Below are positions 1 through 63,258 of a stretch of DNA of 64,000 bases, in pieces. Numbering within the stretch: position 1 is the stretch's first letter; each line of letters begins with the position of its first letter. The position numbers were made by a program, and so were the translations under genes. This DNA is from an uncultured virus (IMG/VR IMGVR_UViG_3300025009_000092) (lineage: Duplodnaviria > Heunggongvirae > Uroviricota > Caudoviricetes). The notes beneath the pieces were generated by a model. It was not told where the DNA came from. It did no database searches and worked only from the letters and a program-made list of their open reading frames with translations. The stretch lies in IMG/VR virus record IMGVR_UViG_3300025009_000092, one strand, 5' to 3'.

Positions 1-52
1 CGGTAATGGAGATGTTTAAATATTTCATCCAAGGTTCCATCCAGAAAAAGAA

Positions 53-216
53 ATGAAGATTTATTTAGCCGGGGTTCCGGGGGGGGCAGTCCCGGGTATT
101 GCAAAAGGGAGATTGAACTGATTGATAAAAATCTATTTAAAACCAGATTACATTCTTTTTATCATCTAAAAATCACGAATAATAGTATAATAAAGCAGAA
201 GAAAAAGAAGTCGTAA
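53..216 (+). pseudogene. MKIYLAG module A, frameshifted at a G8 tract (candidate phase-variable OFF state)
   Basis: ATG53 reads MKIYLAGVPGG into G8 (79-86) and stops at 119-121. One extra G gives ...GSPGYCKREIELIDKNLFKTRLHSFYHL...KKKS, ending TAA at 214-216, three bases before the next ATG. Confidence 0.75.
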
Positions 217-219
217 ACC

Positions 220-1252
220 ATGAAAATCAACTTTGCCGGCACCCCAGGAACGAGAGAGAGAGAGAGAGAGGAAATGGCAAAGCCTGATTAACAAGCGCCT
301 CCTCTCTTTCTGGGATATTTCTCAAAATCAATTTAACATACCATTTGCCTTCGAATTATCTATGGAAACTAAAGTCGACATCTTCCTTGACTCCGGCGCT
401 TTCTCCGCATTTACCCAGGGCGTAGAAATCGATATTAACGAGTATATCGAATTCATAAAAGCCCATAAGGATCACCTTGAGGTATATGCCAATCTTGATG
501 TTATTGGTTCCCCGGAAGGCACATGGCGGAATCAGCGGCGCATGGAGAAGGCCGGGGTCAATCCCCTCCCCTGTTTCCATTATGGCGAAGATCCCAAGTG
601 GCTGCAGATGTATTTATCCAGGGGCTACGACTATATTGCCCTTGGCGGCATGGTTCCTATCTCAACCCCTGATCTGAGAATATGGCTGGATGATATCTGG
701 AAAAATTACCTGACCGATAAAGACGGGATGCCGATTATCAAGGTGCATGGGTTTGGATTGACCAGCAACTCCTTGATGCGGCGATATCCCTGGTGGTCGG
801 TAGATAGTACGAGCTGGGTAATGACTGGCCGGATGGGCGGGGTATATGTCCCGAAATTCAAGGACGGCAAATACGACTATTCAGAAGACTGCTGGAAGGT
901 CCAGGTCAGCAATCGCAGCCCAAGTAAAAACGAGGCCGGCAAACACCTGGAATCCTTTTCCCCAATTGCCCGGCAGAATATTGAAAAGTATTTTACCGCC
1001 AAAGGATTCAAGGTTGGAGTATCCAAATTTAGGACGGTTGATGCCAAATACGAATTAAAAGAAGATGAGAAATGGAATGGCAAGGAGGCTGGCGGAAAGA
1101 GGGAGGTCGAAAAAATAATCGAGGGCGGTCTCTCCAATGATTACAAGCAGCGAGATGAACTGAATATTATCTACTTTCTGGATCTGGAAAAGAACTGGCG
1201 GGCCTGGCCGTGGCCGTTTCAACCAAAGGTATCGAGGAGTTTTTCGTTATAA
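220..1252 (+). CDS. dpdA: DpdA/TGT-like 7-deazaguanine DNA transglycosylase; its N-terminal module is out of frame at an (AG)9 tract
   Basis: TGT-barrel motifs FLDSGAFS, NLDVIG, PCFHYGE, IALGGMV, KVHGFG and SVDSTSW; queD/queE are in the same genome. ATG220 (MKINFAGTPG) joins the long ORF only if the AG tract (252-270) gains one unit or loses two. There is an in-frame internal ATG at 362. Confidence 0.7.
252..270. repeat. (GA)9G dinucleotide microsatellite
   Basis: gagagagagagagagagag read directly. Confidence 0.95.
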
Positions 1253-1476
1253 TGCGCATTTACCTTGCAACTTGGCTCCTGGAGATATCACAAGGAGAAT
1301 CCCTGACCAAAGCAAATGGCCGGCATTGCCTCTTGAGTTATTTTCACACCAAAGAAAAAGAAGCCGATTTTGATCAATACTGTAAAACCGGAACCAATAG
1401 AAACAATCAAAAAGATGAAAATATATCTGGCTGGCAACGGGGCGATGCCAAAAGAACAAAGAGAAAGTCTGTATAA
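1252..1476 (+). CDS. MKIYLAG-family module C (no tract, intact)
   Basis: MRIYLATW...RHCLLSYFH; the ATG overlaps the dpdA-like stop (TAATG). Confidence 0.7.
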   Translation: MRIYLATWLLEISQGESLTKANGRHCLLSYFHTKEKEADFDQYCKTGTNRNNQKDENISGWQRGDAKRTKRKSV

Positions 1477-1604
1477 TGGTTGCCCCCCCCCGATTGAAGA
1501 GGCGGCTTTTATCATTCTTTGAAGTCCAGCCCGGAAGATTTTGTCATTCTCAATGGAATTGGTTACATGAAAATATACTTAGCAAGCATCGCACCAGGCC
1601 ATGA
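1415..1604 (+). pseudogene. MKIYLAG module D, frameshifted at a C9 tract (candidate OFF state)
   Basis: MKIYLAGNGAMPKEQRESLYNGCPP runs into C9 (1483-1491). Removing one C gives RLKRRLLSFFEV...RP, ending TGA at 1602-1604. Confidence 0.75.
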
Positions 1605-1788
1605 GGGGGGGGCGGATCTTCCTGCTTTAAAAATCGATAAGCGCCTTTTATCATACCATCATATACTCGGGAATAACTTCGGTTCTACTATTGTATTTAA
1701 CGCCTTAATAGGAGAAGAGCATGCAGTTAAAAAGAACGGAATTGATAGCCGCCCTGGAAGAAGTAAAGCCAGGACTCGCCCAGCGTGA
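1567..1788 (+). CDS. MKIYLA module E with an in-frame G8 tract (candidate ON state)
   Basis: MKIYLASIAPGHEGGADLPALKIDKRLLSYHH; G8 at 1605-1612. Confidence 0.75.
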   Translation: MKIYLASIAPGHEGGADLPALKIDKRLLSYHHILGNNFGSTIVFNALIGEEHAVKKNGIDSRPGRSKARTRPA

Positions 1789-2740
1789 CATAATTGCGCA
1801 ATCAACCAGCTTTGTTTTTGCTGGGGATTCAATCACAACTTTCAATGATGAGATATCTGTCTGGAAGCCATTCAAATCCGGAATCGAGGGAGCCGTCCGG
1901 GCCAATGAATTGTATTCCCTCCTTTCCAAGATCAAGGACGAGGAAATCGAAATTGGTATTGTTGAAAACGAACTGATCATCAAAGGGAAGCGGAGCAAGG
2001 CCGGCATCAAACTGGAAGCCGAAATAATGCTTCCGCTGGATGAAGTCGATATCGAACATACCAAATTTACCAAGCTGCCGGATAACTTCCTGAAGGCCAT
2101 TTCCATTGCCAGTTACTGCGCCGCCAAGGATCTGAGTAAACCCCTTTTGACCTGTGTCTATATTGATGGCGAGGTCGTGACTGCTTCCGATGATTTCCGG
2201 ATCATTCAAGTCAATTTTGATGCAGAGGTCAAATCCGAACCAATTCTGTTGCCGGCATCGGTTGTCAAATTCTTGGTTAAGTATGATGTCAAGCGTCTGT
2301 CCCATTCCCCCGGCTGGATTCATTTCCATGCCAATGCCTGTCCGGGCTTTCTTGACGGGCTGATTTTTTCAGCCCGGGTCCTGGCTGGCAAATTCCCAGA
2401 GGTTGAGCAATTCCTTGAAGTCAAAGGAAAGGAACTCCATTTCCCGGCCGGCGTTTTGGAAATGCTGGATCGGGCCGGGGTATTTACGGCGGATTCAGCA
2501 AGCGGTGATTTCGTATCGGTGATAGTCGAAGACCGAACCATGATCATCAAAGGGAAAGGGGATTATGGTTGGTTGGAAGAAACGGCCAATTGTAAATACA
2601 AAGGGGAGAAAATCGAGTTTGATGTTGACCCTTCTTTCCTGATTGATATCCTCAAGAATTTGCGGAAGTGCATTGTCGGGAATGGGGCTTTGTTATTTGA
2701 AGGGGATAATTTCAGGCATGTAGTTGCGCTGGTTGGGTGA
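1721..2740 (+). CDS. dnaN: DNA polymerase III beta sliding clamp-like protein
   Basis: 339 aa with a clamp-like pattern (LLTCVYI, ASDDFRI, GKFP, FLIDILK); adjacent to dnaE and dnaX. Confidence 0.75.
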   Translation: MQLKRTELIAALEEVKPGLAQRDIIAQSTSFVFAGDSITTFNDEISVWKPFKSGIEGAVRANELYSLLSKIKDEEIEIGIVENELIIKGKRSKAGIKLEAEIMLPLDEVDIEHTKFTKLPDNFLKAISIASYCAAKDLSKPLLTCVYIDGEVVTASDDFRIIQVNFDAEVKSEPILLPASVVKFLVKYDVKRLSHSPGWIHFHANACPGFLDGLIFSARVLAGKFPEVEQFLEVKGKELHFPAGVLEMLDRAGVFTADSASGDFVSVIVEDRTMIIKGKGDYGWLEETANCKYKGEKIEFDVDPSFLIDILKNLRKCIVGNGALLFEGDNFRHVVALVG

Positions 2741-2743
2741 TAT

Positions 2744-4210
2744 ATGTTTTGTCACCTCCATCTCCACAATGAATACTCCGTCCTTGATGGGGTCGGGACT
2801 TCCAAACAATATGCCGCCCTGGCTAAAGAACTTGGACAAACTCATCTCGCAATATCAAACCATGGAAACATCGACGGCGCGATTGAACACCAGAAGCAAT
2901 GCCTTGAAGCCGGGATAAAGCCAATTATCGGAGCAGAGATGTATCTTGTTCCGGATATGACCCAGAAACAGAAAGGGGAAACTCGCTACCATATAACTCT
3001 ACTTGTCGAGAATCAAACCGGCTGGCGGAATCTTCTACAACTCCTGACCATTGCCAATATTGAAGGGTTCTACCACAGGCCCAGGATCGACCATAAAACC
3101 CTCCTGAAGCATATTGATGGCCTGGTAATCCTTTCGGCCTGCTCCATGTCTTATCTGCTCCTTGATGTCGAAAATTGGATGATCCTCGATTATATTGAGG
3201 CGCTTGGAAAGGATCGAGTTTTCCTGGAGGTCATGCCGCATGATATCCCCGAGCAGGTAAAAGTAAATAAATTGGCTTTGAAGATATCCAAAGAACTCGG
3301 GATTCAAATTGTAGCCACTAACGATGTTCATTATCCGACCAATGAGGCAACCAAACATCAAGAAGTACTCCTGGCCATCCAATCAAAAAGAACCTGGAAT
3401 GATCCAAACAGGTGGAAATTTAATTGTACCGGCCTCTTTCTCCGCTCAGAAAAAGAAATGGTCGAGGCCTTCCAGGATCAAGGTGTTTTGACTGACCACG
3501 AGATCCGGAAGGCAATCCGGATGACTGGCAAGGTCGCCAGGCTTTGTGAAAACTTTCGGATTGAACAGCAAGAAGTATATCTGCCAAGCATCAAGAAATC
3601 TTTTAATGATGAATCAGAATTATTGTTTCTTGAAAATATGGTTTACAAGGGATTGAAAAGAAGAATCCGCGGGCGAACTTTCGAGGAATTGAAGCCATAC
3701 AAAGAACGAATCGAAATGGAAATGAAACTGATCATCTCCAAGAAGTTCGTTCGCTACTTCCTCATCGTTTGGGATCTTATTCAATGGTGCCAAAAGAATA
3801 ATGTAATGACTGGACCAGGGAGGGGGAGTGCTGGTGGATGCCTTGTTGCTTACCTATTGTATATTACTGATTGTGATCCCCTCATCTATGGTACAGAGTT
3901 CTTTCGGTTTATAGATATAAGCCGGTGTTTTATTGGAGGCACAAAAGTATTAATCAATAATGGGGTTAAAAATATTGAAGAAGCAAAAATCGGAGATATT
4001 GTTATAAATAAATATGGGGAAGAAGATGAAATTGAAAAGATTAGAAAATTTAATGTAAAAGAAAAACTTTTGAAAATTTATTTTGAGGATAAATTTATTA
4101 TTTGCACTCAAGATCATAAATGGATAGTTAAGGATGAGAATGAAAATATAGTAGAAAAAATGGCGAAATATTTAAATCCCGATAAGGATAAACTAATAAG
4201 GATAAAATGA
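2744..4210 (+). CDS. dnaE: DNA polymerase III alpha, N-part (PHP domain plus start of the palm), fused to a split-intein N-half
   Basis: HLHLHNEYSVLDG, ATNDVHY, GPGRGSAGG; the intein begins CFIGGTKV at 3926 and has a block-B motif CTQDHKW. Confidence 0.92.
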   Translation: MFCHLHLHNEYSVLDGVGTSKQYAALAKELGQTHLAISNHGNIDGAIEHQKQCLEAGIKPIIGAEMYLVPDMTQKQKGETRYHITLLVENQTGWRNLLQLLTIANIEGFYHRPRIDHKTLLKHIDGLVILSACSMSYLLLDVENWMILDYIEALGKDRVFLEVMPHDIPEQVKVNKLALKISKELGIQIVATNDVHYPTNEATKHQEVLLAIQSKRTWNDPNRWKFNCTGLFLRSEKEMVEAFQDQGVLTDHEIRKAIRMTGKVARLCENFRIEQQEVYLPSIKKSFNDESELLFLENMVYKGLKRRIRGRTFEELKPYKERIEMEMKLIISKKFVRYFLIVWDLIQWCQKNNVMTGPGRGSAGGCLVAYLLYITDCDPLIYGTEFFRFIDISRCFIGGTKVLINNGVKNIEEAKIGDIVINKYGEEDEIEKIRKFNVKEKLLKIYFEDKFIICTQDHKWIVKDENENIVEKMAKYLNPDKDKLIRIK

Positions 4211-5049
4211 TGAGAAGGAGGAATCTTCTAAAATCAGGAATTTATTGCATAAAAAATATTATCACCAATAAAATTTATATTGGTAGTTCAATAAATTTAA
4301 AAAACAGAATAAATGAACATAAGCGTTATTTAAGCAAGAAAACTCATCATAGCAGCCACCTACAAAGATCGTGGGATAAATATAAAGAAGAAGCATTTGA
4401 ATTTAATATTATAGAAAGGGTTTGTAATGAAAAACTTTTAGAAAGGGAGCAATACTGGATTAATTTTTATAAGTCATCAAATAGAAAATTTGGTTATAAT
4501 ATTTGTCCGATTGCCGGAAATACCCTTGGGGTCAAAATGTCAGAGGAGGTCAAAAGGAAAACCTCCGAAAGAACCAAAGGGGAGAAAAATCCAATGTTCG
4601 GCAAAACACATACTCCAGAAGTTAGAAAAATATTATCTGATTTTCATACCGGATTAAAAGTAACTGATGAATTTAGAGAAAAAATGTCTATTGTAACAAA
4701 CGGAGAAAACAATGGAATGTATGGCCGAAATCACTCGGTAGAAGCAAAAGAATCAATAGCAACGAAACTAAAACAAAGAGGCGGTTATTTAGGGGAGAAA
4801 AATCCTAATTACGGCAAAAAGTGGTCGATAGAACAAAGAAAGGCGATGAGTGAAAGGTTGTTATCAGAAAAGACTATGGCCGGAGACAATAACCCGAACG
4901 TAAAAATAAAAAGTTATAATTATCCAAAAATTCTAAACAGAATTAGAAATAAAGGGAGAAAAGCAATTCCATTTTTAGCAAAACATTTTGGAGTTTGTCC
5001 AGCTACCATAGATAATATATTAAAGAAGGTGGATTGTGAAAACTATTGA
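4207..5049 (+). CDS. GIY-YIG homing endonuclease with NUMOD3-like repeats, located between the intein halves
   Basis: SGIYCIKNIITNKIYIGSS, REQYWI, GYNI, repeated GEKNPMFGKTH-type motifs; AT-rich. Confidence 0.9.
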   Translation: MMRRRNLLKSGIYCIKNIITNKIYIGSSINLKNRINEHKRYLSKKTHHSSHLQRSWDKYKEEAFEFNIIERVCNEKLLEREQYWINFYKSSNRKFGYNICPIAGNTLGVKMSEEVKRKTSERTKGEKNPMFGKTHTPEVRKILSDFHTGLKVTDEFREKMSIVTNGENNGMYGRNHSVEAKESIATKLKQRGGYLGEKNPNYGKKWSIEQRKAMSERLLSEKTMAGDNNPNVKIKSYNYPKILNRIRNKGRKAIPFLAKHFGVCPATIDNILKKVDCENY

Positions 5050-6679
5050 AATCAAAGAATCCATAAAAATTAAAAAAATAGAAGAGTTTGATTTTGAAGG
5101 GTTAGTCTATTCTTTAAAAGTTAAGAATGATCCGTCTTACTGTTTAGAAAACAAAATAATAACAAAAAATTGCGACCTTCCTGATATTGATATGGATTTT
5201 GAGGACATCCGCCGCGATGATGTTCGTAAATATCTTTCTGAAAAATATGGGGAGTATAATGTAGTTGGCCTTTCCAATTTCCTGACCATGAAAGGAAAGG
5301 GCGTACTTCGCGATGTAAGCCGCGTTTTCGATATCCCCTTATCAGAGGTCGACTTTGCCGCCAAGGCGATGGTAGAGGCCGAAGTAGGCCAGGAGATCGA
5401 GAAGTCTTTCAGTGAGGTTCCGGAGTGCCGGAGATTCGGTCAGAAATATCCAGAAGTGATTGAGGTTGCCCAATCCATCGAAGGACAGATCAGAGGCCAT
5501 GGTCAGCATGCGGCCGGCGTCTGTATTTCCGAAAAGGATCTCCGGGAAGGTCACAATTGCAATCTCGTTACCCGGGCCGGTACCATAGTGGCCAATTGGG
5601 ATATGAGGAATGCAGAGTATTGTGGTTTGATGAAACTGGATATCCTTGGACTTTCAGCCCTAACCATCTTGAATGAATGCCGACGGATGGTAAAACAGAA
5701 TCACGGGATTGATATCAATTATAAAAAAATTACCTTCGATGATCCAAAAGTCTTTGCCGAAATATCCGAGGGCAATACGGTCGGGGCCTTCCAGATTGGT
5801 TCAAATGGCCTGACCAATTATTGCAAGGAACTCGGGGTTGAAAATTTTCAAATGCTCTATGCAGTAACGGCCTTGTGGCGTCCTGGTCCCATGCAATCAG
5901 GGATGACCGAGTTATATTCCAAGCGGAAACGGGAAAAGGCCAAGGTCGAAAAGATTCATCCTATTTTTGATAAACTGACGGAGGAAACATTCGGGGTCAT
6001 TGTTTATCAGGAACAGGTCATGAAAGCGGTCAATCAATTGGCTGGCATCCCTATGTCAACTTGCAATAAGATCAGGAAGGTCATGGGCAAGAGTATGGGT
6101 CACGCCGCTTTCGATAAATATAAAGACGAGTTCCTGCAGGGTTGTAAAAATCAAGGAACGATCCCGGAAAAGAAGGCCATACAAATCTGGGATATGATGT
6201 CGAAATTCGGTGGTTACGGCTTCAATCTTTCTCATTCTGTAGAATATTCAATGATTACATATTGGGACATGTTTAGCAAAACATATTTCCCCAATGAGTT
6301 CCTTGCTTCCTGCCTGACCCTTGGAGATAAGACAAAAAACATTGAATATATCAGGGAAGCCAGGCGGCTTGGTTTGAAGATCAATCTGCCAAAAATTGGT
6401 ATTTCAGATGCGGTCAAATGGAATTGTGACAAGAAAGGTAATTTGTATGCCCCATTTATTTCCATTAATGGCGTCGGCGAAACCGTAGCTGAAAAGATTG
6501 CTGCAGCCAAACTCGGGGAGAAGCAGCGGAAAGGCTTTTTCTCATCGACCCCAAGTGAAAAGATCCCCGGCGTGAATAAAAACGTAACCGCAATCCTGAC
6601 CCAGATAAATGCATTTGATCCTGATTATGTGACAACAAGAGATGATCTGAAGAAGTTTAAATCACTATTTATTTTTTGA
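5036..6679 (+). CDS. dnaE: Split-intein C-half fused to DNA polymerase III alpha, C-part
   Basis: VYSLKVKNDPSY...IITKN|CDLPDIDMDF, then HAAGV, LMKLDILGL, VYQEQVM and YGFNLSH. Confidence 0.92.
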   Translation: MKTIEIKESIKIKKIEEFDFEGLVYSLKVKNDPSYCLENKIITKNCDLPDIDMDFEDIRRDDVRKYLSEKYGEYNVVGLSNFLTMKGKGVLRDVSRVFDIPLSEVDFAAKAMVEAEVGQEIEKSFSEVPECRRFGQKYPEVIEVAQSIEGQIRGHGQHAAGVCISEKDLREGHNCNLVTRAGTIVANWDMRNAEYCGLMKLDILGLSALTILNECRRMVKQNHGIDINYKKITFDDPKVFAEISEGNTVGAFQIGSNGLTNYCKELGVENFQMLYAVTALWRPGPMQSGMTELYSKRKREKAKVEKIHPIFDKLTEETFGVIVYQEQVMKAVNQLAGIPMSTCNKIRKVMGKSMGHAAFDKYKDEFLQGCKNQGTIPEKKAIQIWDMMSKFGGYGFNLSHSVEYSMITYWDMFSKTYFPNEFLASCLTLGDKTKNIEYIREARRLGLKINLPKIGISDAVKWNCDKKGNLYAPFISINGVGETVAEKIAAAKLGEKQRKGFFSSTPSEKIPGVNKNVTAILTQINAFDPDYVTTRDDLKKFKSLFIF

Positions 6680-17998: not shown

Positions 17999-19286
17999 GA
18001 AAAGTAAATTCCTTACCCGAGAAACAGGATTTGAATAATATTCTCGATAAAATCCGGGAAGAGTTAAATGACTTGGAAGAGGCCAAAGGCCTTTTATCAG
18101 ACATTTATGAACAACTGGAAAATGACAATCAAATAAGTCATTATACCTGGACTCGACTTGTTTCATTTATGGAGAAGAAATGAAACGCTATATCATCAGA
18201 ATGTGGTCAGATAAAGTTGACCCAGTAATTGTCGAAGTGGATATCGTCAGGGAGAATGAAGATGTTATTTTTCTGGCCGGCAAACCGATATCCAAAGACA
18301 CCGATTACATTAAAGTCCGGGATACCTGGGAAGAGGCAAAGGCAGAACTGGTTAAACTGCAAGCAGCAATAGTTAAAAACCATTACCGGCAATGGAAAAG
18401 ATCAGAAAGATTATTGAGAAAAATAGAGGAACAGAAAAATGTTACGTGATTTATTCTTTATTGTTATTGGAATGAATATTGGGGTGGGGATAAGTTTGGT
18501 ATTATTTAAGGGATTCAGAGAAGAATTTATGGAATTTTTTAATATAGAAATATCAAAAATCATTGAGGCAAATAAACAAGAACCATATATAGCAGATATA
18601 AATACAGAGTCGTTGAAATATAATCCGAAATACGGGGACGATAGAATTTGTAAATGCGGTCATGTTTATTATAGACATTTCGATTGGGCAGATAATTATG
18701 CTGCTGTTGGTTGTAAATATTGTAATTGCTATGAGTTTATAGAGAAGTTATAAAATCCCTTTAAACTTCTTTTTTAATCTCTCAAACTCCTTCAACTCCT
18801 TCTTTTCTGTCTCAGCAAAAATATACCAGGCCTCAAGCTGCTTACTGTATTCTGGTTTAATATTCGCTACGCTATTCCAATTCACTGACACTTCAAGAAA
18901 CTCTTTGTATTCATCCCATCTTCCATCTATACTACCGAGATTCCCATGAAGGCGAACGTATGTACTTTTCGAAGGAGTATGCATATGTCGGTAGTCTATT
19001 TCGATCTTTCCAATAACTCCAATATGGTATAATGCCAACAAAGCTGGTGGGGGGGCTTGCATTAATTCTTCTCAATATAATGAAATTGCTTTCTGTTTAC
19101 ATATTTCAATAACCGATTTTACCCCTCTCCGGACGTCTTCTCTCTTATATGCCCATGCTGAAATATTTATCTTCCCGTTATAAACAGACCTGAATTTAGG
19201 GAGAAGTTTTTCACATTCTTTACAGTCCTTGCAAAGCGCTTTATTTATTTCCAGGGTCAATAGTTCATCAGCATTGTTCTTTCCCA

Positions 19287-37317: not shown

Positions 37318-37994
37318 TACTTGCCCTCCTCATTGAACCATTTCGGCTCGATAAAGGCTTTGACCATAGGCTCGTTGAATACCAAGCCAACACTCTCTAT
37401 CAACTGCCTAGCATAATCCCAATCTCCAGCACAAAGTCGGGAAGGCCAGAAGTCAAAGATATCCAGCTTAGCAGTATGCATTTCTGCAAATCTTTTTTCG
37501 TGCTGGTCTATCCAAGACTGCCAGCCAGCCTCATCCCGGTAAGCCCGCATGAATCTCGTTAATTGGCAGCTCCTGATGATATCCTTATGATTCCGATGAA
37601 TGATAATCCATTTAGCTTTTGGAAAGGCTTTATGCCACATATACCACATTCCAGCAGCCTTGGTACATTTGCAGAACCATTCACCACTTTTATATCCCTG
37701 AGACATCATAAGCCGCTGAACGATATCTCTCCAGTGATCTGCTTCCGGCTGGGAAACTTCAAATACCTGGCGATTGTTCGGAAGTGGCTTCTGGCCCATT
37801 GGGTCGGCGCCGATCTTTTTCAGGTACGGTTTAACAATATCATTCCGGAGATTGCAATTTTCAAACATCCCCTTCTGGGCATCAATACTGGGTCCATACA
37901 TCTCCCCGCCAAAAGCCCCACAGATATTGAGCATACCTGCCGTCATCGATGTTCCAGAACGGGCACAACCAACTACTAAAATCGGATCTTTCAT
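37317..37994 (-). CDS. sulfotransferase-family protein
   Basis: PILVVGCARSGTS (PAPS-binding loop) and FPKAKWIIIHRN..DIIRS. Confidence 0.7.
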   Translation of the reverse strand: MKDPILVVGCARSGTSMTAGMLNICGAFGGEMYGPSIDAQKGMFENCNLRNDIVKPYLKKIGADPMGQKPLPNNRQVFEVSQPEADHWRDIVQRLMMSQGYKSGEWFCKCTKAAGMWYMWHKAFPKAKWIIIHRNHKDIIRSCQLTRFMRAYRDEAGWQSWIDQHEKRFAEMHTAKLDIFDFWPSRLCAGDWDYARQLIESVGLVFNEPMVKAFIEPKWFNEEGK

Positions 37995-38638
37995 GCATGC
38001 TCCTTTACAATCTCTTGCCAAAGGGTTGGGACTTCAAACGGCCTGGGTTTACCATGGAAAACAAGCACCTTACAATTTGAAGATATTCCACCAGAACAAT
38101 GTCGCTTATATGAATAGATGCTCTCCGGGAAGGCGTCTTGTAATATCCTGGGGATGATTCGTTTCTCTTTCAATTTGGTATTCGTATAATCTTCTTCACC
38201 ACGAAGCTGCTTGGAAAATTTCTCATAATCAAATTGGTCATACAGCCATGACCAATCTCCATTCCAGGCCATAATTCCTGAGATAGTTCTGACTGGTGGT
38301 CTGAAAGAACGAATCATCCAAAAATCTTTTTCTGTAGAGTCAGTGGCCACCTTAAATAAGTCATCAATGTTACCACGGATCATTGTATCAATACCAGTTA
38401 CAACAGTCGGACCAATATTCCGAAAAACCTCAGGGACAGACCACCAACCTGGCCAGTTATTAATCAGGGGAATAGAGACGACGCCATCAATCTTTTCCTT
38501 GGAGTCTGTAAAACAAATGAAGTCGTAAGGAATCGTCGTATTTGCTTGTACCTGCGCTGCAAGGAGTCGGACGTGCTCTTCTATATAATCCCCCCCAAGC
38601 TTCAGTACACAAGCAAACACCGGCATTGTTGACTTCAT
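37991..38638 (-). CDS. glycosyltransferase-like protein (GT-A), paralog 2
   Basis: CVLKLGGDY...FICFTD...WPGWWS...GIDT...SGIMAW...VFHGKPRP. Confidence 0.65.
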   Translation of the reverse strand: MKSTMPVFACVLKLGGDYIEEHVRLLAAQVQANTTIPYDFICFTDSKEKIDGVVSIPLINNWPGWWSVPEVFRNIGPTVVTGIDTMIRGNIDDLFKVATDSTEKDFWMIRSFRPPVRTISGIMAWNGDWSWLYDQFDYEKFSKQLRGEEDYTNTKLKEKRIIPRILQDAFPESIYSYKRHCSGGISSNCKVLVFHGKPRPFEVPTLWQEIVKEHA

Positions 38639-39270
38639 TCCACTAACCTCCATAGATTCGTCCGCCAGGGCTTGGGATCGCCATGGAAAATGATGATTCC
38701 CGGATCTTTCACAAGGTTCTTCCGAATATGGAGTTTGTAATTACAAATCCCGGCAAAGTATTCTTGGATTGCTGTTAAATCGACCCCTTTGGTCAGCAAA
38801 GCATTTATCTGGTAATTTTCATCACCACGATGGAGTTTTGATTCCTTCTCAAAGTCAAACTCATCATACAGCCAGGACCAATCTCCATTCCATGCCTGCA
38901 TCCCATTGATAAATTCTCCCGGATGAAAGAACGAATCAAGCAAAAAGAAATCATCTTCCGGGATATGACAGACCATTTTCAAAAGGTCGTCAATGTTCTT
39001 CAGGATCATTGTATCCAGGCCAATAGCAATTGTCGGTCCTTGGTGTTTCCAAAGTTCGACGCAAGACCACCAGCCGGGATAATTCTTTTCAAGTTCAACC
39101 GTCTCTATTTCCGGAAGTTCATCAGCCTGATCTGTATAGCAAACAAAACGATAAGGAATCGTCGCATTGCGTTCAATCTGTCTTGCGAGTGCTCTCACAT
39201 GGCCTGGGTAATAATCACCGCCAGAGCGAAGGCAAACGACTATTGAAGGGATCTGATTAATCATAGCCAT
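38635..39270 (-). CDS. glycosyltransferase-like protein (GT-A), paralog 1
   Basis: CLRSGGDY...FVCYTD...YPGWWS...GLDT...IFHGDPKPW. Confidence 0.65.
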   Translation of the reverse strand: MAMINQIPSIVVCLRSGGDYYPGHVRALARQIERNATIPYRFVCYTDQADELPEIETVELEKNYPGWWSCVELWKHQGPTIAIGLDTMILKNIDDLLKMVCHIPEDDFFLLDSFFHPGEFINGMQAWNGDWSWLYDEFDFEKESKLHRGDENYQINALLTKGVDLTAIQEYFAGICNYKLHIRKNLVKDPGIIIFHGDPKPWRTNLWRLVE

Positions 39271-39758
39271 TCACTCTCCGGCACTGTACCAATCTTGACT
39301 GCTCGACTCTTACCATGAGGCGTTCCCCAAACTTCACCAGCCGGAATGTCTTTCGTTACAAAAGAATTGGCATGAATGAAAGCATTCTCGCCAATATTTA
39401 CGCCAGGGGCAATCACAGCACCAGCCCCAATCCGAGCTCCATTGCCGATAATAGCCCGCTCAATCTTTGGAACCGCTCTCCCCTGATTGGCAATGTTCTT
39501 CTCATTGGTCATTACTACTCCCGGACCGAAGAAAACATTGTCACCGATAGTGGCTTCTGCGGTGATATGGCATTGAGATTGAATCGTCGTATTGTTGCCG
39601 ATCTTGGTATCCCTTTCAATCACCACATTATGACCAACAATCGAGTTCTCGCCAATCTCCACATTGTCTCGAAGGACAACAAAATGGAAGACTTTAGTAG
39701 TCAGAGCTAACTTGACCCCTTGGTCAATTACAACGTATGGGCTGATAAATCCTGACAT
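39261..39758 (-). CDS. hexapeptide-repeat (left-handed beta-helix) acyltransferase
   Basis: IGENSIVG, IGNNTTI, IGDNVFFGPGVVMTN, VTKDIP. Confidence 0.85.
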   Translation of the reverse strand: MSGFISPYVVIDQGVKLALTTKVFHFVVLRDNVEIGENSIVGHNVVIERDTKIGNNTTIQSQCHITAEATIGDNVFFGPGVVMTNEKNIANQGRAVPKIERAIIGNGARIGAGAVIAPGVNIGENAFIHANSFVTKDIPAGEVWGTPHGKSRAVKIGTVPESEWL

Positions 39759-40390
39759 ATGGCCTCTAATGGTTTTCGTTCAAATGTTTCAAGAGCGCCG
39801 CCGACTGTTGCGTTTATAATCTTCAATCCAACCTGATTTGCATCCCTGGCTATTACTGGCCAGTACTTCATAAACTTTGGGTATGGGTCATGAAGTCTTC
39901 CTGCTTTTTTGTCGAACCTGACTTCATAGTCGTTATGCCAATGAGACTGCGTATCCTTTGGATCAGCCGGGTTCTGCATATCGAAGCCGAGTAGGACGAC
40001 AGTTTTTGCTCCAAGCCAGTAGGCAAAATTGATCGCCGAAGCCCCGGAGTTTCCATTCCAGGCAATACCATTTCTTCTCTTGATCTCAATTCCAGATGGT
40101 TTACTTCTGCCAACATATTTCACCCTAACTTTTCTCTGTCCTGGAAGAGTAGCTGCGCAAGTAGCAATCAGCCCTCCATACTCCGTTATCGCCGGTAAAT
40201 TCTCTTCGTACCAACCTTTGTCACCAAACCAGCAGGCATCAACCCAAGGCCCGAGTTTATATGCCTGATTCACTCCGATCACTCGGTGATTATGGATGAG
40301 TGATAAATCCTGTTTTAAAAGACTGACTCCACCACCGATAATGAAGACAGTCGACTCAGGCCAAATCCTTGGTATTTCCCAGAACGACAT
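39728..40390 (-). CDS. DUF115/Maf/Cst-like sugar-transferase-fold protein
   Basis: VFIIGGGVSL, IGVN, NSGASAI..A.WLGAK.VVLLGFDM, IINAT. Confidence 0.6.
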   Translation of the reverse strand: MSFWEIPRIWPESTVFIIGGGVSLLKQDLSLIHNHRVIGVNQAYKLGPWVDACWFGDKGWYEENLPAITEYGGLIATCAATLPGQRKVRVKYVGRSKPSGIEIKRRNGIAWNGNSGASAINFAYWLGAKTVVLLGFDMQNPADPKDTQSHWHNDYEVRFDKKAGRLHDPYPKFMKYWPVIARDANQVGLKIINATVGGALETFERKPLEAICQDLSAHTL

Positions 40391-56987: not shown

Positions 56988-57006
56988 CATTTATGGAGAT
57001 TTGCGG

Positions 57007-57921
57007 ATGGAAGTTTTTGATCAAGATAAACCGAAAAGAAAAGTAAAGGGTATTTGGATTCCTATTGAAATTTGGGAGTGTAAAATCTTAACTCTGCAGC
57101 AAAAAGTATTCCTCGCCGAAATAGATAGTCTTGATCATGGGAATGGTTGTTATGCTAAGAATAAATGGTTCTCTAAACAATTTGGAATTTCTCAAGATCG
57201 AGCATCAAGGGTAATTGGAAGTTTGATTGATCTTGGATTGGTTTCTTCAAAACTTATTTATAAAACCAATTCAAAAGAAGTCGAAAAAAGATTGTTAAAA
57301 ATGATTGCCCCCCTCCCGGTAGAAATACCTATAGGCCCCGGTGAAAGTACCGATACCCCCCCCGGTAAAAACACCGAGGATATAATATATAAAAAAGATA
57401 ATATAGATAATAAAAGAATATATGGCAATGTTCCTGCGGAACAATTGCCGAATGATTCTAATGATAGAAGTCTTAAAGCATGGAGTGAAGTAATTTTAAA
57501 TAACCCCTCCAAAATTAATTTAAATAAAACCCTCCAAAGAAAAGCAACAAAAGTTCTTTCCAGACTTAATCAACTTGGTTCCAAACCAAGAGGGTTCCGG
57601 CCAGTCCCTGAAAATTTGAAATATATAATATCCCGCCTGAAGGATGGATTTTCCGTACAGGATTGTTTCCAAGTTCTTGAAACAAAAATCCATGATCCTT
57701 GGTTTGAAGAAAATCCAAAACTTTATAATCCAGAAACATTATTCCGCCCCAAAAACTTCGAAAAATACCTGAATGAAAAAGTACAGGACTATGAAAAGAA
57801 ACAACCAGGGGTAGCCAATGGCTCAGGCATCTCCGGCAATATTGATTATTCACTCAGGCCAGGAAGAGACAAAAAAATAAAAGTCGACAAAACCAATTGG
57901 GGGAAATACGATAATGAATGA
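57007..57921 (+). CDS. phage replication initiator (N-terminal HTH, conserved C-terminal domain)
   Basis: GCYAKNKWFSKQFGIS..RASRVI..L; C-terminal RLKDGFS...PETLFRPKNFEKYLNE. Confidence 0.8.
   Translation: MEVFDQDKPKRKVKGIWIPIEIWECKILTLQQKVFLAEIDSLDHGNGCYAKNKWFSKQFGISQDRASRVIGSLIDLGLVSSKLIYKTNSKEVEKRLLKMIAPLPVEIPIGPGESTDTPPGKNTEDIIYKKDNIDNKRIYGNVPAEQLPNDSNDRSLKAWSEVILNNPSKINLNKTLQRKATKVLSRLNQLGSKPRGFRPVPENLKYIISRLKDGFSVQDCFQVLETKIHDPWFEENPKLYNPETLFRPKNFEKYLNEKVQDYEKKQPGVANGSGISGNIDYSLRPGRDKKIKVDKTNWGKYDNE
57315..57375. repeat. three iteron-like repeats (putative origin)
   Basis: CCCGGTAGAAATACC, CCCGGTGAAAGTACC, CCCGGTAAAAACACC, followed by an AT-rich tract. Confidence 0.65.
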
Positions 57922-61714: not shown

Positions 61715-63247
61715 ATGAGTTCCCAATTCATCGAACGCCGCATTGCCATCGGCCTCATTACCAACGACCAATACCTGCGGGAAATAGCCCCCGTATTTAA
61801 TGCCGATCTCCTCAAGGATGAAGCGGCAAAAAAGATTGCCTCCTGGTGCATCCGCTATTTCAATAAGCACGGAAAAGCACCCCTGGAAGATATCGGGATC
61901 ATCTTCGAATCATATACCAGGAGGGGGAAACTCAATCAGGAAGAATCGGAGGATATTGGTAGCATCCTTGACGACCTCAGTGATGAATATCAAACCCAGG
62001 CCGAGAACAACCCGGAGGTCCTGATTGACGAAACTTTCGCATACTTCGATGAAAACAGGCTAGTTCGCCTGGCGGATGATATCAAGGCCGAGGCCCAGCG
62101 GGGGAACCTGTTAGAGGCCAATGTACTGCTTGCTACTAATAAGCAAATTCAACGGGCGGTAAATATAAACCATGACTTCTTCGCCGATGATATTACCAGG
62201 ACGCAAAAAATATTTGAAGACATCCAGGAGCCAATTGTCGAATACCCTGGTAAGCTCGGGCAACTCTGGAACCGGCATTTCGTTCGTGGAGGTTTTGTTG
62301 GATTACTCGGCCCTGAAAAAACTGGAAAAACATGGTGGCTGGCAGACATTGGATTCCAGGCCCAACGAACCGGTAAAAAAGTAGCCTTCTTTGCGGCCGG
62401 GGATATGAACCGGGAGGAAATGGAACTCCGGAAATATATCTATATGGCCAGGAAATCCAACGAACTTGAATATTGCGGGCAATTGATGATCCCGGTGGTT
62501 GATTGTTTCTGGAATCAGAATGGTCAATGTCCGGCTGGTTGCGGTGAATCGCCAATCCGGGGAGATAAACCACCGGCCTTCAAGGATCTCCAACAAGTTT
62601 ATAGCGATGCTTTTGAACAATATGGAAGTGACCATACCCCATGCACCAAATGCCAGGGCAAAAAAGAATTCCTAGGTGCCCCATGGTTCAAGCTCCGAGA
62701 TAAAATAGTCCCCCTGAACTGGAAAGAGGCATATAATATTGAGCGAAAATTCCAAAAACGATTTCGTGGGGCTGGTTGGAACTTTGCCGATTATCCGGCT
62801 TATACCCTCAGTCCGAAAATGATTGATAATCAATTGGCCATCTGGCACGAAGGCGGCTTTACAGCCGATGTTGTGTTGATTGATTATCCGGATATCATGG
62901 CCCCAGACCTGGAAGACCAGCGAATGGATTTCCGGCAGAAAGAGAATATGAAGTGGTTGAAGATCCGGGCGTTGGCCCATAAGTGGCATTGCCTCGTTGT
63001 TTGCCCTACACAAGCCGATGGAGCCAGTTATGGCAAGGACTGGCTGGATCTCTCCAACTACAGCGAGGATAAGCGAAAGTACAGCCATACAACGGCCTTC
63101 TTTGGTCTCAATCAAACCGATGGGGAAGCCGAGTTGGGGCTATTCAGGATTAATCAATTAATTGTTCGAAGTGGAAAGCGAGGAAAGAAGTATGCAACTA
63201 TTTGCCAGCGGCTCGAAATGGGTCGGCCATTTCTAGGATCATATTAA
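61715..63247 (+). CDS. replicative DnaB-like (SF4) helicase with a Cys-rich insertion
   Basis: GPEKTGKT, VLIDYPD, PTQA, SEDKRK. Confidence 0.75.
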   Translation: MSSQFIERRIAIGLITNDQYLREIAPVFNADLLKDEAAKKIASWCIRYFNKHGKAPLEDIGIIFESYTRRGKLNQEESEDIGSILDDLSDEYQTQAENNPEVLIDETFAYFDENRLVRLADDIKAEAQRGNLLEANVLLATNKQIQRAVNINHDFFADDITRTQKIFEDIQEPIVEYPGKLGQLWNRHFVRGGFVGLLGPEKTGKTWWLADIGFQAQRTGKKVAFFAAGDMNREEMELRKYIYMARKSNELEYCGQLMIPVVDCFWNQNGQCPAGCGESPIRGDKPPAFKDLQQVYSDAFEQYGSDHTPCTKCQGKKEFLGAPWFKLRDKIVPLNWKEAYNIERKFQKRFRGAGWNFADYPAYTLSPKMIDNQLAIWHEGGFTADVVLIDYPDIMAPDLEDQRMDFRQKENMKWLKIRALAHKWHCLVVCPTQADGASYGKDWLDLSNYSEDKRKYSHTTAFFGLNQTDGEAELGLFRINQLIVRSGKRGKKYATICQRLEMGRPFLGSY

Positions 63248-63258
63248 AAGGAGAGGAT

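Follow-up and report, generated by a model that had tools for sequence, protein, structure and literature searches.

Positions 53-1788 of the window, by which we mean the whole 64,000-nt stretch of viral DNA analysed here, hold five paralogous mini-ORFs, found by sequence and motif inspection and assigned to types C, D, E, F and G, each of which is homologous to residues 1 to ~45-50 of canonical phage DpdA. The best reading of this array, and one that we consider on balance probable, is a DpdA split into a core and interchangeable quarter-barrel subunits that are phase-variable. DpdA puts preQ0-type 7-deazaguanines into DNA, and the marks made by DpdA with QueD and QueE are anti-restriction marks, while simple-sequence tracts are drivers of slipped-strand phase variation. 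The phage that carries the array is an uncultured groundwater virus from a clade of uncultured siphovirus-like phages, and its relatives, found on viral, metagenome and MAG contigs, share the module types of the window and have two more, types A and B, upstream. Because the MAG bins that contain relatives bear conflicting labels, we assign no host. The nearest virus record (G001) lacks the array region.

The module array and its DpdA-like core

The first-pass annotation had described five ORF starts with a shared motif, each followed by a second motif, and re-reading of the sequence bears out both sets of positions. The first motif reads MKIYLAG at ATG 53, MKINFAG at 220, MRIYLAT at 1252, MKIYLAG at 1415 and MKIYLAS at 1567, and the second reads RLHSFY at 145, RLLSFW at 296, CLLSYF at 1327, RLLSFF at 1503 and RLLSYH at 1642. 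A loose regular expression for the first motif finds 5 matches on the + strand of 1-1800 versus 1 (+) and 3 (-) across the remaining 62 kb, and one for the second finds 5 matches in the array versus 1 elsewhere in the 64,000-nt window. The tracts and frames described at the same time were also seen, namely G8, (AG)9, C9 and G8, each lying between the two motifs of its module, with a frame change needed to reach the second motif in the copies at 53, 220 and 1415; these three modules are OFF, the copy at 1567 is ON, and the copy at 1252 is tract-free. The features of the window are as follows.

53..216, + strand: module type C, free-standing, OFF, starting at ATG 53; in L017 and L021 its orthologue and the core form one in-frame fusion
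79..86, + strand: G8 tract of module C, in the beta1-alpha1 loop, coding for PGG; G8 in the window and L002, G9 in L001
220..361, + strand: module type D, the N-terminal quarter (beta1-alpha1-beta2-alpha2) of the DpdA core, out of frame with the core
252..269, + strand: (GA)9 tract of module D, equally (AG)9 at 253..270, coding for (Arg-Glu)n where helix alpha1 begins
362..1252, + strand: DpdA core, strands beta3-beta8 of a TGT-like barrel plus a clade-specific C-terminal part, with Met 362 at the alpha2/beta3 junction
1252..1476, + strand: module type E, free-standing, in frame and tract-free, its ATG overlapping the core stop codon (TAATG)
1415..1604, + strand: module type F, free-standing, OFF, with its ATG in frame 2 and its second half (LKRRLLSFFEVQPGRFCHSQWNWL...) in frame 3
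1483..1491, + strand: C9 tract of module F, directly before strand beta2
1567..1788, + strand: module type G, free-standing, ON, 73 aa, its tail running into the clamp gene, which starts at 1721
1605..1612, + strand: G8 tract of module G, in the beta1-alpha1 loop
63202-63630, + strand: QueD-like gene, a member of the preQ0 operon
63630-63998, + strand: start of a QueE-like gene, the operon continuing on L004

The first half of module C lies in frame 2 and meets a stop at 119-121, and its second half (SPGYCKRE...RLHSFYHL..., ending in KKKKS and a stop) lies in frame 1; one added G would join the two, and the G9 allele of L001 is a single 54-aa ORF. The halves of module F would be joined by the removal of one C, the C8 allele of L043 being one 62-aa ORF where the otherwise identical L041 has C9. 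Module D opens at ATG 220 in frame 1, with its KWQSLINKRLLSFWDISQNQFNIPFAFELS part in frame 2. This copy had been taken for the N-terminus of the DpdA-like ORF, an assignment confirmed by L014, in which an (AG)7 tract leaves module D and the core in frame as one 342-aa ORF. A Lys/Arg-rich tail closes many of the modules.

The array sits between the FolE/QueC/QueE/QueD genes and replisome genes, and it goes on upstream of the window on a 100%-identical contig (L004), whose position 3640 corresponds to window position 1. The upstream genes of L004 encode GTP cyclohydrolase I, QueC and a radical-SAM QueE, and the order of the operon is QueE, a 267-aa unknown protein, DUF6884, QueC, FolE and then, directly after FolE, a type B module with a C7 tract, followed by window position 1. 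The linkage to preQ0 synthesis genes, originally noted for QueD and QueE, extends to QueC and FolE, which flank the array as well. A promoter and terminator scan of 1-3000 gave 9 promoter-like sites versus 4.9 expected and zero + strand terminators within the array, figures that carry little information, and an Rfam search of L004 (8,888 nt, E<=1) returned two chance-level matches only, with no riboswitch or other RNA family.

That the enzyme is DpdA-like, as first annotated, is upheld by both profile and fold matches. The core (362-1249) matches phrog_887, 'queuine tRNA-ribosyltransferase', at E 2.5e-58, the match starting at profile position 35 for the long ORF versus 54 for the core alone. 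DpdA genes from 244 deposited phage records share ~50% identity with it, no deposited phage record covering at least 80% of the core, and among relatives it keeps 98-99% amino acid identity at ~90% nucleotide identity. The NCBIfam model NF041059 (bacterial DpdA equivalog, cut-off 200 bits) gives weak matches in 24 of 25 aligned members (best E 1.1e-5), L014 scoring 23.4 bits and so falling below the cut-off; to judge from these profile scores, the enzyme is related to bacterial DpdA but is not its equivalog. Pfam returned no family for the core or the modules, one member matching PF23859 DpdA at E 2.8e-4, and a PDB sequence search with the profile of alignment A4 gave only matches at E 0.25-0.85. 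The motif FLDSGAFS, which would hold the catalytic Asp, is invariant in the alignment, and its comparison with residues 83-99 of E. coli TGT (KGPILTDSGGFQVFSLG) is just a 17-column hhalign match with a probability of 1.5%. The Asp of SVDS, a putative counterpart of the TGT nucleophile, is also invariant in the alignment, and L041 has an intein placed exactly before this motif. An internal Met before the core motif was considered as a clade marker and rejected, since it occurs in 30 of 38 clade cores but also in 24 of 57 canonical ones, from a DKMR helix.

The proposal that the module is the start of the transglycosylase barrel agrees with both alignment and model. In alignment A4, the modules align to full-length DpdA N-termini, covering the segment MKLYLAG...LESYHY with which 19 canonical one-piece DpdAs begin. 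One-piece DpdAs hardly vary in the Ser-aromatic pair of beta2, and the two barrel strands hold the most conserved residues of all free types. The AlphaFold model of the in-frame relative L014 (pLDDT 87.3, pTM 0.85) places beta1-alpha1-beta2-alpha2 before the DSG strand, its elements running E2-5, H13-19, E24-28, H29-34 and H41-49, then the DSG-bearing E52-56, then six further beta-alpha units, with the module part being less confident (block means 62-84). Among solved structures, the best matches to this model are TGTs together with DpdA 7ui4, at Z 16.9-17.8 over 250-265 aligned residues; the Z score is 17.8 for human TGT 7nq4_A (rmsd 3.8 over 261 residues), ~17 for Z. mobilis TGTs and 16.9 for DpdA 7ui4 (rmsd 3.7 over 265 residues); residue 1 of the model corresponds to residue 40 of Z. 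mobilis TGT and to residue 4 of DpdA 7ui4. The AlphaFold model of module E has the same element order as the enzyme N-terminus, with pLDDT 82-89 over residues 1-50. A fold search with this free type E model found 0 of 48,161 chains at Z>=2, the fragment being too small to speak to fold, and the ESM Atlas gave one unnamed cluster at 0.76 for module E, with no structure.

Repeat tracts and their alleles

Expression of the modules is quite likely phase-variable, and the array has two hallmarks of contingency loci, in that repeats inside the reading frame are over-represented relative to the rest of the sequence and that tract lengths are polymorphic, with both in-frame and out-of-frame alleles. 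The 64,000-nt window contains in total four G/C runs of at least 8 and one dinucleotide repeat of at least 5 units, and four of these five long repeats fall in 53-1788 (binomial P = 2.6e-6). Under the phage's own codon usage (10,136 codons, 23 genes), the codons that spell out the four tracts would be chosen with probabilities of 0.016, 0.020, 0.030 and 0.00023. Across 29 representative loci, the motif-to-motif intervals hold 48 repeats in 9,292 nt versus 17 in 197,177 nt elsewhere (P = 2e-50), which amounts to 5.2 per kb within modules versus 0.086 per kb elsewhere, or ~60-fold. The kind of repeat varies within a type across phages, type B having C7-9 or (AG)6, type A none, (AG)5-6 or G8, and type C G8-9 or (AG)7.

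Tract lengths vary between related phage contigs, and ON and OFF alleles are both present among them, in keeping with the switching first suggested for the array. Type B occurs with C7, C8 or C9, type C with G8 or G9, type D with 5, 7, 8 or 9 AG units, type F with C8 or C9 and type G with G6, G8 or G9; the predicted ON alleles G9, (AG)7 and C8 are known, and in-frame alleles occur for each tract-bearing type of the window (C, D, F and G). Module D has 9 units in the window and the L041 lineage, 8 in L001 and the L002 group, 7 in L014 (ON) and 5 in L003/L012, and when attached to the core this type is OFF in 8 of 10 alleles. Out-of-frame alleles of module G are G9 in L005 and G6 in L016/L018. 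Repeat-bearing modules are 16 ON and 26 OFF, and repeat-free modules are 19 ON and 1 OFF (Fisher P = 1.9e-5); type E is repeat-free in 11 of the 12 lineages scored.

The closest comparisons place length changes mostly in the tracts. L003 and L012 have 0 mismatches in 3,645 nt and 2 indels, both within tracts, and L041 and L043 have 0 mismatches in 3,241 nt and 2 indels, both in modules (a C tract and an A4/A5 run); taken together, 3 of the 4 indels lie in G/C tracts, and the C8/C9 difference of module F occurs in both pairs. Over 8 near-identical pairs, length differs in 6 of 21 G/C runs of at least 8, in 0 of 24 G/C runs of 5-6 and in 0 of 32 A/T runs of 6-7. Where contigs that are identical elsewhere differ by one base in a homopolymer, errors of sequencing or assembly could be the cause, and the (AG)n differences are those of more diverged lineages. 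Four contigs of one strain type (L002, L010, L011, L015) agree in the states of all four tracts, and (GA)9 is common to the window and the ~76% identical L041 lineage; the consensus lengths are therefore not changing rapidly. That a single population switches, and does so reversibly, is what we infer from these between-contig differences. Assembled Logan contigs of 4 runs have the C9 and G8 of the window and are fragmented, breaking at 243-334 near (GA)n; they show no tract-length alleles, an outcome that bears on neither switching nor expression. Two structural variants (1403->1567 and 1246->1564) coexist in the same runs.

Conservation, exchange and rival readings

Synonymous and nonsynonymous counts point to purifying selection on both sides of the tracts, in two different frames. 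The core has 72-77 synonymous versus 4-6 nonsynonymous changes, and, given as synonymous/nonsynonymous, the counts are 5/1, 4/0 and 7/0 for segment 272-361 in the core frame (versus L001-L003), 12/1, 11/1 and 12/1 for module E, 4/3 and 4/2 for the post-tract frame of module C (versus L001/L002), and 3/1, 5/0 and 4/0 for module G after its tract, with 16.5/6.5 versus L041. Module F after its tract appears relaxed in close comparisons (1/5 and 1/3). Values of pN/pS are 0.0-0.27 in the proposed frames and >1 in most other-frame comparisons with enough changes to score. In L001 and L002, ATG, GTG and TTG starts are absent before segment 272-361 in the core frame, and since it has no start in its own frame, this segment is readable there only via a frame change.

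Judged by their sequences, the free modules are real genes. Module types are kept, mostly in the same order, down to ~55-65% core identity, and a search with the type E profile brings up 295 cluster representatives at E<=0.001, or 121 when the limit is E<=1e-10, which puts type E in a family of at least 295 clusters; among the 150 type E matches listed, 148 are 41-107 aa long. A tblastn search of module E against 50,697 phage records gave no match at E<=1. Content differs among close relatives, F being absent in L001/L002, E replaced in L002, and type A bearing a stop codon in L001.

The array also has the attributes of a split enzyme, with pieces that have their own starts and stops, that jointly cover one fold and that occur fused in relatives. 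Type C is free in the window and core-fused in L017 and L021, type D is core-fused in the window lineage and free in L021 and L033, and 15 of 38 distinct clade cores have <25 open codons upstream, 13 of them clear of contig ends. Completion in trans is favoured because 13 relatives have core-only ORFs and because types fused in one genome are free in another; the odds that the free modules would complete the barrel in trans on a core made from ATG362 seem to us evenly balanced. Free modules also coexist with a core that already bears an in-frame module (L017, L021, L031), so completing a module-less core cannot be their sole role. Type E is probably the standing partner of the core.

The mechanism that we propose would operate as follows. 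DpdA would be encoded in pieces, one being a core of beta3-beta8, for which a Met start of its own is possible (window 362), and the others a tandem family of 45-75-aa mini-proteins, each equivalent to beta1-alpha1-beta2-alpha2 and falling into at least seven conserved types, A to G. The type directly before the core would serve as the core N-terminus when in frame, with the others free-standing. Slippage in phage DNA replication would alter tract length, modules would flip frame independently, and progeny would carry different module sets. An in-frame module would then complete the barrel by joining, in cis or in trans, a core that lacks one, and the holoenzymes formed with different modules may vary in activity, in substrate or in the sequence context of the target. 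The population could in this way spread its risk between classical restriction, which is blocked by modification, and defences that depend on modification. In its fullest form, a six-strand DpdA core completed in trans by any of up to seven quarter-barrel subunits, each gated by its repeat, with progeny differing in 7-deazaguanine motif, density or base, the scheme is a tentative one, and the putative step by which switching changes what gets modified is, taken singly, rather doubtful.

Among the rival readings, the one we regard as unlikely, and not as negligible, is that the free modules are phase-variable without completing a barrel, acting instead as regulators or competitors that, for example, bind the DpdA dimer interface, titrate the core as dominant negatives and so set the modification level, or target a host TGT or Dpd protein. 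Free modules alongside module-bearing cores in L017, L021 and L031 would fit such a role, as would the Lys/Arg-rich tails of many modules and the fact that the beta1-alpha1 loop-helix of bacterial TGT contributes to the dimer interface. Against it stand the 13 relatives that have a core and no attached module, a six-strand core being an incomplete barrel, and the conservation pattern, in which both barrel strands, including the beta2 Ser-aromatic pair, are best conserved in all free types; moreover, the same types alternate between fused and free, and type E overlaps the core stop codon, as is common in subunit genes. The least probable of the rivals, to our minds a very remote one, holds that the extra modules are functionless, decaying partial duplications of the dpdA 5' end. 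Variable module content (F missing, E replaced, the type A stop) and the relaxed post-tract part of F are what decay would produce, but pN/pS is low in the proposed frames, types and order are conserved, post-tract frames stay open, 19 of 20 repeat-free modules are intact, and the type E family has 295 clusters.

The two remaining rivals concern the tracts themselves. Constitutive readthrough by transcriptional slippage or ribosomal frameshifting, with tract length tuning amounts only, is improbable. Long homopolymers can make a polymerase slip, and the halves of OFF modules are conserved even where every sampled allele is OFF (type D), as readthrough would predict; yet the required shift differs by allele (for type D, the window, L019 and L027 need +1 and L001-L003 need -1), the sequences showed neither a conserved slippery heptamer nor a downstream structure, RNA polymerase is to our knowledge not known to slip on (GA)n, and in-frame alleles exist for C, D, F and G. 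Slightly less credible still is that the homopolymer lengths are sequencing or assembly errors, the modules being ordinary in-frame small genes in an array that is real but unswitchable. The single-base differences in the 0-mismatch contigs do all lie in 8-9-nt G/C runs or in A4/A5, where short-read consensus is weakest. Type D alleles, in contrast, step by whole dinucleotides (9, 8, 7, 5), with 8 of 10 out of frame, and OFF lengths recur in independent contigs, G8 of module C in the window, L002, L010, L011 and L015, and C9 of module F in the window, L016, L005 and L041. The tracts also need unlikely codon choices, and they are enriched 60-fold in modules, for which errors cannot account.

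Relation to known systems and significance

No paper found by our literature search brings DpdA together with repeats or phase variation, or describes it as split. Bacterial phasevarions (Type III mod) and Type I hsdS genes with repeats are systems in which tracts create ON/OFF or specificity variants in a clonal population. The array resembles these phase-variable R-M systems in having repeats near the 5' end or between the modules of DNA-modification genes. However, the bacterial cases are cellular methyltransferases in which the whole gene or a target-recognition domain is switched, whereas the array concerns a viral transglycosylase in which the switched unit is a barrel quarter present in many alternative copies. 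Separately encoded pieces have precedents in laboratory HisF half-barrels, the quarter-barrel hypothesis and the split archaeal arcTGT; as in the array, separate pieces make up a (beta-alpha)8 barrel or TGT enzyme, while the natural arcTGT split divides whole domains instead. We know of no 2+6 barrel split with a library of alternative 2-unit pieces, and a literature search on split barrels and TGTs gave nothing specific.

The canonical phage DpdA1 type (9g, CAjan, iggy and others; PMC6884629, PMC10516641, PMC10484667) shares with the array ~50% core identity, the TGT-like fold and the FolE/QueD/QueE/QueC setting. Unlike the array, canonical DpdA is a single ~300-aa ORF with one N-terminus and no repeats. 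The main-text passages of two Hutinet papers on DpdA, supplements aside, do not mention split, truncated or frameshifted DpdA, and passages of one study assign distinct target motifs to the DpdAs of different phages (PMC10484667). Within phages, the nearest parallel in mechanism is agt of phage T2, for which sections of a preprint describe A-tracts as a contingency locus between TgvAB and McrA/BC, where sub-populations escape a Type IV (modification-dependent) system and become sensitive to another (bioRxiv 10.1101/2025.10.21.683753; Gomez, Barrick, Waters). As in those sections, and as proposed for the array, the repeat lies inside a phage DNA-hypermodification gene and +/-1 indels switch modification. 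T2 agt is there one intact alpha-glucosyltransferase gene with A-runs and plain ON/OFF switching, whereas the array has 5-7 quarter-barrel paralogues round a split enzyme, with their own G/C or (AG)n tracts, is associated with 7-deazaguanine and is known from sequence alone. Campylobacter phages have poly-G tracts in receptor-binding genes (Sorensen et al. 2021, as cited in the discussion of bioRxiv 10.1101/2025.10.21.683753); there too, hypermutable G tracts lead to phenotypic sub-populations, but the tracts described lie in host-recognition genes and come without a module array.

If the split, phase-variable DpdA is real, phages would diversify DNA hypermodification stochastically, beyond on/off, giving a second and more elaborate contingency case after T2 agt and a phage-side counterpart of bacterial phasevarions. 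The interchangeable N-terminal quarters on one core would be a ready-made experiment on what determines DpdA target specificity, and a natural (beta-alpha)2 + (beta-alpha)6 split would bear on the quarter-barrel idea of TIM-barrel evolution and supply components for engineered split enzymes. Names can now be given to hundreds of 45-75-aa 'hypothetical proteins' beside dpdA in metagenomes, and dpdA genes that look frameshifted in viral contigs should not be dismissed as errors or pseudogenes.

The modular array and its genomic setting

The array described in the first-pass annotation is a real, unusual feature of the window, and its five starts, tracts and frame states were all reproduced. Within 53-1788, five plus-strand starts carry M-[KR]-I-[YN]-[LF]-A, each followed 25-30 codons later by a second motif, R/C-L-[LH]-S-[FY]-x, and in four of them a simple repeat lies between the two motifs. 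We call these segments, which are homologous to the first 45-50 residues of phage DpdA, modules, and refer to a module as ON when its two motifs share a frame across the tract and OFF when they do not.

53, + strand: start of module C; G8 tract at 79-86, frame shifts at the tract (OFF)
220, + strand: start of module D; (GA)9 tract at 252-269, frame shifts at the tract (OFF)
362-1249, + strand: DpdA core from Met-362, directly behind module D
1252, + strand: start of module E; no tract
1415, + strand: start of module F; C9 tract at 1483-1491, frame shifts at the tract (OFF)
1567, + strand: start of module G; G8 tract at 1605-1612, in frame (ON)
63202-63998: QueD-like and QueE-like genes, at the window's end

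The two motif expressions match 5 and 5 times in the array versus 4 and 1 times across the other 62 kb, both strands included, and the likeness of the starts is at the protein level, since synonymous positions differ among them. Clustering of the tracts is not a product of chance, because the entire 64 kb holds four G/C runs of at least 8 and one dinucleotide repeat of at least 5 units, five repeats in total, four of them in the array (P = 2.6e-6). Under the phage's own codon usage, the codon choices in the window's tracts have probabilities of 0.016, 0.020, 0.030 and 0.00023. The remaining G/C runs of at least 7 in the window number only three and are possible further switches: C8 (57356-57363), in frame within a replication-initiator-like gene (57001-57921); G7 (19049-19055), at the 5′ end of a small minus-strand ORF (18748-19062); and C7 (38590-38596), near the 5′ end of one (37991-38653) of two tandem minus-strand glycosyltransferase-like genes. 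Together with a gene of unknown function and a sialyltransferase-like gene, this pair forms a minus-strand group (37991-40387) set within the structural (head-tail) genes.

The window belongs to a siphovirus-like phage that encodes terminase, portal, capsid and tape measure as well as a Pol III-type replisome of its own. The array lies within a preQ0-synthesis operon and ahead of the clamp gene, as indicated by the QueD/QueE genes at the window's end together with the gene order of L004, a contig identical to the window over 1-1800 that extends upstream. There, the order is QueE, a 267-aa unknown, DUF6884, QueC, GTP cyclohydrolase I, module B (C7) and window position 1, with the ATG of module B overlapping the FolE stop. 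No Rfam family was found within the array, and a terminator scan found no plus-strand terminator inside it. The 267-aa ORF, in which Pfam found no family, and the DUF6884 protein (E 1.8e-34) occupy L004:760-1964 between QueE and QueC and are deazaguanine cluster members with no assigned role. Elsewhere in the window, the Pol III alpha gene occurs as two ORFs (2744-4210 and 5036-6679), the first ending in a weak Hint/intein-like segment, with a GIY-YIG/NUMOD3 homing-endonuclease ORF (4207-5049) between them.

The module within the DpdA barrel

The core, ORF 362-1249, matches PHROG 887 (annotated as queuine tRNA-ribosyltransferase; the phage DpdA family) with E 2.5e-58, and has no match in Pfam. 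The PHROG match begins at profile position 54 for this ORF and at position 35 for the longer frame from 233, so the profile includes the module. The core shares ~50% identity with the DpdA genes of 244 deposited phages, e.g., Escherichia, Mycobacterium and Pseudomonas phages, and in none of the 244 does the match cover at least 80% of it. One-piece relatives begin with MKLYLAG, ~30 aa, LESYHY, ~15 aa and VFLDSGAFS, and the window modules align onto precisely this N-terminus. We built an AlphaFold model on L014, a 98%-identical relative in which (AG)7 brings module D and the core into one reading frame of 342 aa (pLDDT 87.3, pTM 0.85). The model contains a strand (2-5), a helix (13-19), a strand (24-28) and two helices (29-34 and 41-49), followed by a strand bearing the DSG motif (52-56) and six more beta-alpha units. 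Its closest solved structures are tRNA-guanine transglycosylases (TGTs) and the bacterial DNA preQ0 insertase DpdA (7nq4_A, Z 17.8, rmsd 3.8, 261 aligned; Z. mobilis TGTs, Z ~17; 7ui4, DpdA, Z 16.9, rmsd 3.7, 265 aligned), with residue 1 structurally matched to TGT residue 40 and DpdA residue 4. From these elements and this starting point, the module is the barrel's first quarter (beta1-alpha1-beta2-alpha2); model and one-piece alignment thus agree with the earlier proposal that it is the start of the transglycosylase barrel. Met-362 falls at the alpha2/beta3 junction, and the tracts encode the beta1-alpha1 loop (C, G), the start of alpha1 as Arg-Glu repeats (D) or the alpha1-beta2 loop (B, F). 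In bacterial TGT, the beta1-alpha1 loop-helix is at the dimer interface, and residues of beta1 and beta2 line the substrate pocket. Free module E, modelled from a 145-sequence alignment, reaches pLDDT 82-89 across residues 1-50 and keeps the element order of the enzyme N-terminus; a fold search with this model alone matched no solved chain, as might be expected of so short a fragment (50 residues). In an 81%-identity lineage (L041:2501-4348, also L005 and L043), the core carries an in-frame ~320-aa insertion with intein hallmarks, beginning with Cys after ...RYPWF and ending ...YVTGN before Ser, directly preceding the invariant SVDSTSW motif; Pfam found no family in the L041 insertion.

Substitution patterns indicate that module function is maintained. 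Against L001-L003, related loci, the core shows 72-77 synonymous and 4-6 non-synonymous changes. Synonymous/non-synonymous counts are 5/1, 4/0 and 7/0 for segment 272-361 (past the D tract and before Met-362, in the core frame), 12/1, 11/1 and 12/1 for module E, 4/3 and 4/2 for C post-tract, 2/0, 3/0 and 4/0 for F pre-tract, and 3/1, 5/0 and 4/0 for G post-tract (16.5/6.5 against a 76%-identical lineage). F post-tract is mixed, with 1/5 and 1/3 in close and 9/7 and 7/5 in distant comparisons. Alternative frames show an excess of non-synonymous change in most comparisons that could be scored. Since L001 and L002 have no ATG, GTG or TTG start in the core frame upstream of the tract, the conserved segment 272-361 is translatable only from ATG-220 after a frame change.

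Repeat tracts and frame states among relatives

Protein-guided scans yielded 7 viral-contig loci, 80 metagenome loci kept of 142 confirmed, and 32 MAG-binned loci; L004 (= window), L008 (= L001) and L009 (= L002) were left out of counts as duplicates. At least seven module types recur, with order largely kept, in phages whose cores are just ~55-65% identical.

Module types, with repeats seen across phages, tract length needed for ON, and alleles
A: MKIYLASGYSVM...RRLISFHD; no repeat, (AG)5-6 or G8
B: MKIYLAGNTPDR...RRLMAYHY; C7-9 or (AG)6; ON needs C8; L004 C7 OFF, L002 C8 ON, L001 C9 OFF
C: MKIYLAGVPGGG...RLHSFYHL; G8-9, in L021 an interrupted G run plus (AG)7; ON needs G9; L001 G9, 54-aa ORF
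D: MKINFAGTPGTRERE...RLLSFWD; ON needs (GA)7 or (GA)10; L014 (AG)7, 342-aa DpdA; 9, 8 and 5 units out of frame
E: MKIYLATWLLE...RLLSYFHT
F: MKIYLAGNGAMP...RLLSFFE; ON needs C8; L043 C8, 62-aa ORF
G: MKIYLASTAPGHEGG...RLLSYHH; ON needs G8; G8 ON, G9 (L005) and G6 (L016, L018) OFF

The same module type bears different repeats in different phages, so what recurs is the presence of a repeat and no particular one. Counting G/C runs of at least 7 and dinucleotide repeats of at least 5 units in 29 representative loci, we found 48 in the motif-to-motif intervals of modules (9,292 nt) versus 17 in the other 197,177 nt, a density of 5.2/kb versus 0.086/kb (P = 2e-50, which overstates independence because the representatives are related); several of the "outside" repeats actually lie in modules missed by the motif expressions, e.g., the (GA)10 module at L017:2204. 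Across lineages, repeat-bearing modules are 16 ON and 26 OFF, near the one-in-three expectation for free-running frames, versus 19 ON and 1 OFF for repeat-free modules (Fisher P = 1.9e-5). This balance is the signature of a contingency locus, and neither of decay nor of ordinary genes.

Frame arithmetic gives specific ON lengths, which the alleles of relatives confirm, and the earlier expectation that related contigs would differ in ON/OFF state was borne out by alleles of both states for C, D, F and G. Of 10 type D alleles, 8 are OFF, and (GA)9 is common to the window and the 76%-identical lineage. L003 and L012 show no mismatch across 3,645 nt and are separated by two indels, G8/G9 and C8/C9; L041 and L043, likewise free of mismatches across 3,241 nt, are told apart by C9/C8 and by an A5/A4 run inside module G. 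Such one-base homopolymer differences could be consensus errors. Among eight near-identical pairs, length differences affect 6 of 21 G/C runs of at least 8, 0 of 24 G/C runs of 5-6, 0 of 32 A/T runs of 6-7 and 3 of 159 A/T runs of 5, and the dinucleotide (AG)n differences lie between more diverged lineages than the one-base ones. Among the relatives, one strain type is represented by four contigs whose four tracts are in identical states. Assembled contigs from four runs carry the window's C9 and G8 and break around (GA)n, and they show module F present in some coexisting strains and absent from others. Contigs from the same sequencing runs also contain the joins 1403->1567 (module F gone, as in L001) and 1246->1564 (E/F replaced, as in L002), so a single sample holds strains that differ in module set; the ends of the deletions fall within the repeated ATGAAAATATA module starts, which suggests that modules recombine with one another.

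Split and fused arrangements and the proposed switch

Among 38 distinct cores of a long-C-terminus clade, 15 have fewer than 25 open codons ahead of the FLDSGAFS strand, and 13 of these 15 are clear of contig ends; such cores have an ORF to themselves, and free modules lie next to them. In L013/L020 (core 99% identical), module D is absent and the end of a type A module overlaps the core start as ATGA. Type C is free in the window and the in-frame core N-terminus in L017 and L021; type D, attached to the core in the window lineage, is free in L021 and L033. Module E overlaps the core stop, as TAATG in the window and GTGA in L001-L003; ~0.6 kb separates the two in L013:1504-2085, L016:933-1528 and L017:3391-3993. 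Across all free types, conservation is highest in the two barrel strands, including a beta2 Ser-aromatic pair nearly invariant in one-piece DpdAs. Together, the core-only ORFs, fused/free swaps, stop overlap and conserved strands favour modules acting jointly with the core, whether in cis or in trans. Free modules are also present where the core already has an in-frame module (L017, L021, L031).

A type E profile matched 295 of 1.84 billion cluster representatives at E<=0.001 and 121 at E<=1e-10, and among the 150 matches listed, 148 are 41-107 aa, most aligned from residue 1, which points to the free-standing modules as a large, unannotated small-protein family. A few of the listed matches are two-module tandem fusions (P0003, P0004, P0044 and P0147; e.g., F-like plus E-like in 99 aa), and in P0016 an E-type module precedes, within one protein, a longer C-terminal portion (~165 aa). 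A tblastn search of 50,697 deposited phage records with module E found no free-standing module.

Repeat-driven contingency loci in DNA-modification genes are a known kind, in bacteria and, from the available text of one 2025 preprint, in phage T2. We found no published description of a DpdA split inside the barrel, of an alternative quarter-barrel mini-protein family, or of a separate repeat switch on each such mini-protein; the available text of PMC6884629 and PMC10516641 mentions no split, truncated or frameshifted DpdA, and their supplementary DpdA homologue tables might bear on this. The first-pass annotation had proposed that stochastically switched modules complement or tune the core. 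Phase variation of the modules is probable from the length alleles and repeat enrichment, and the mechanism overall is plausible and partly supported. Replication slippage would flip each module independently, a module-less core would be completed by an in-frame module, module identity may alter activity, sequence context or substrate, and the outcome would be a hedge between modification-blocked restriction and defences targeting modified DNA. The hedging step draws on T2 agt, in which, in the available text, +/-1 length changes of A-runs switch glucosylation and reversion is ~1000-fold more frequent for an SSR frameshift mutant than for a point mutant (bioRxiv 10.1101/2025.10.21.683753), and on the differing target motifs of phage DpdAs, GA versus GA/GGC/GGT in the accessible portion of the source (PMC10484667).
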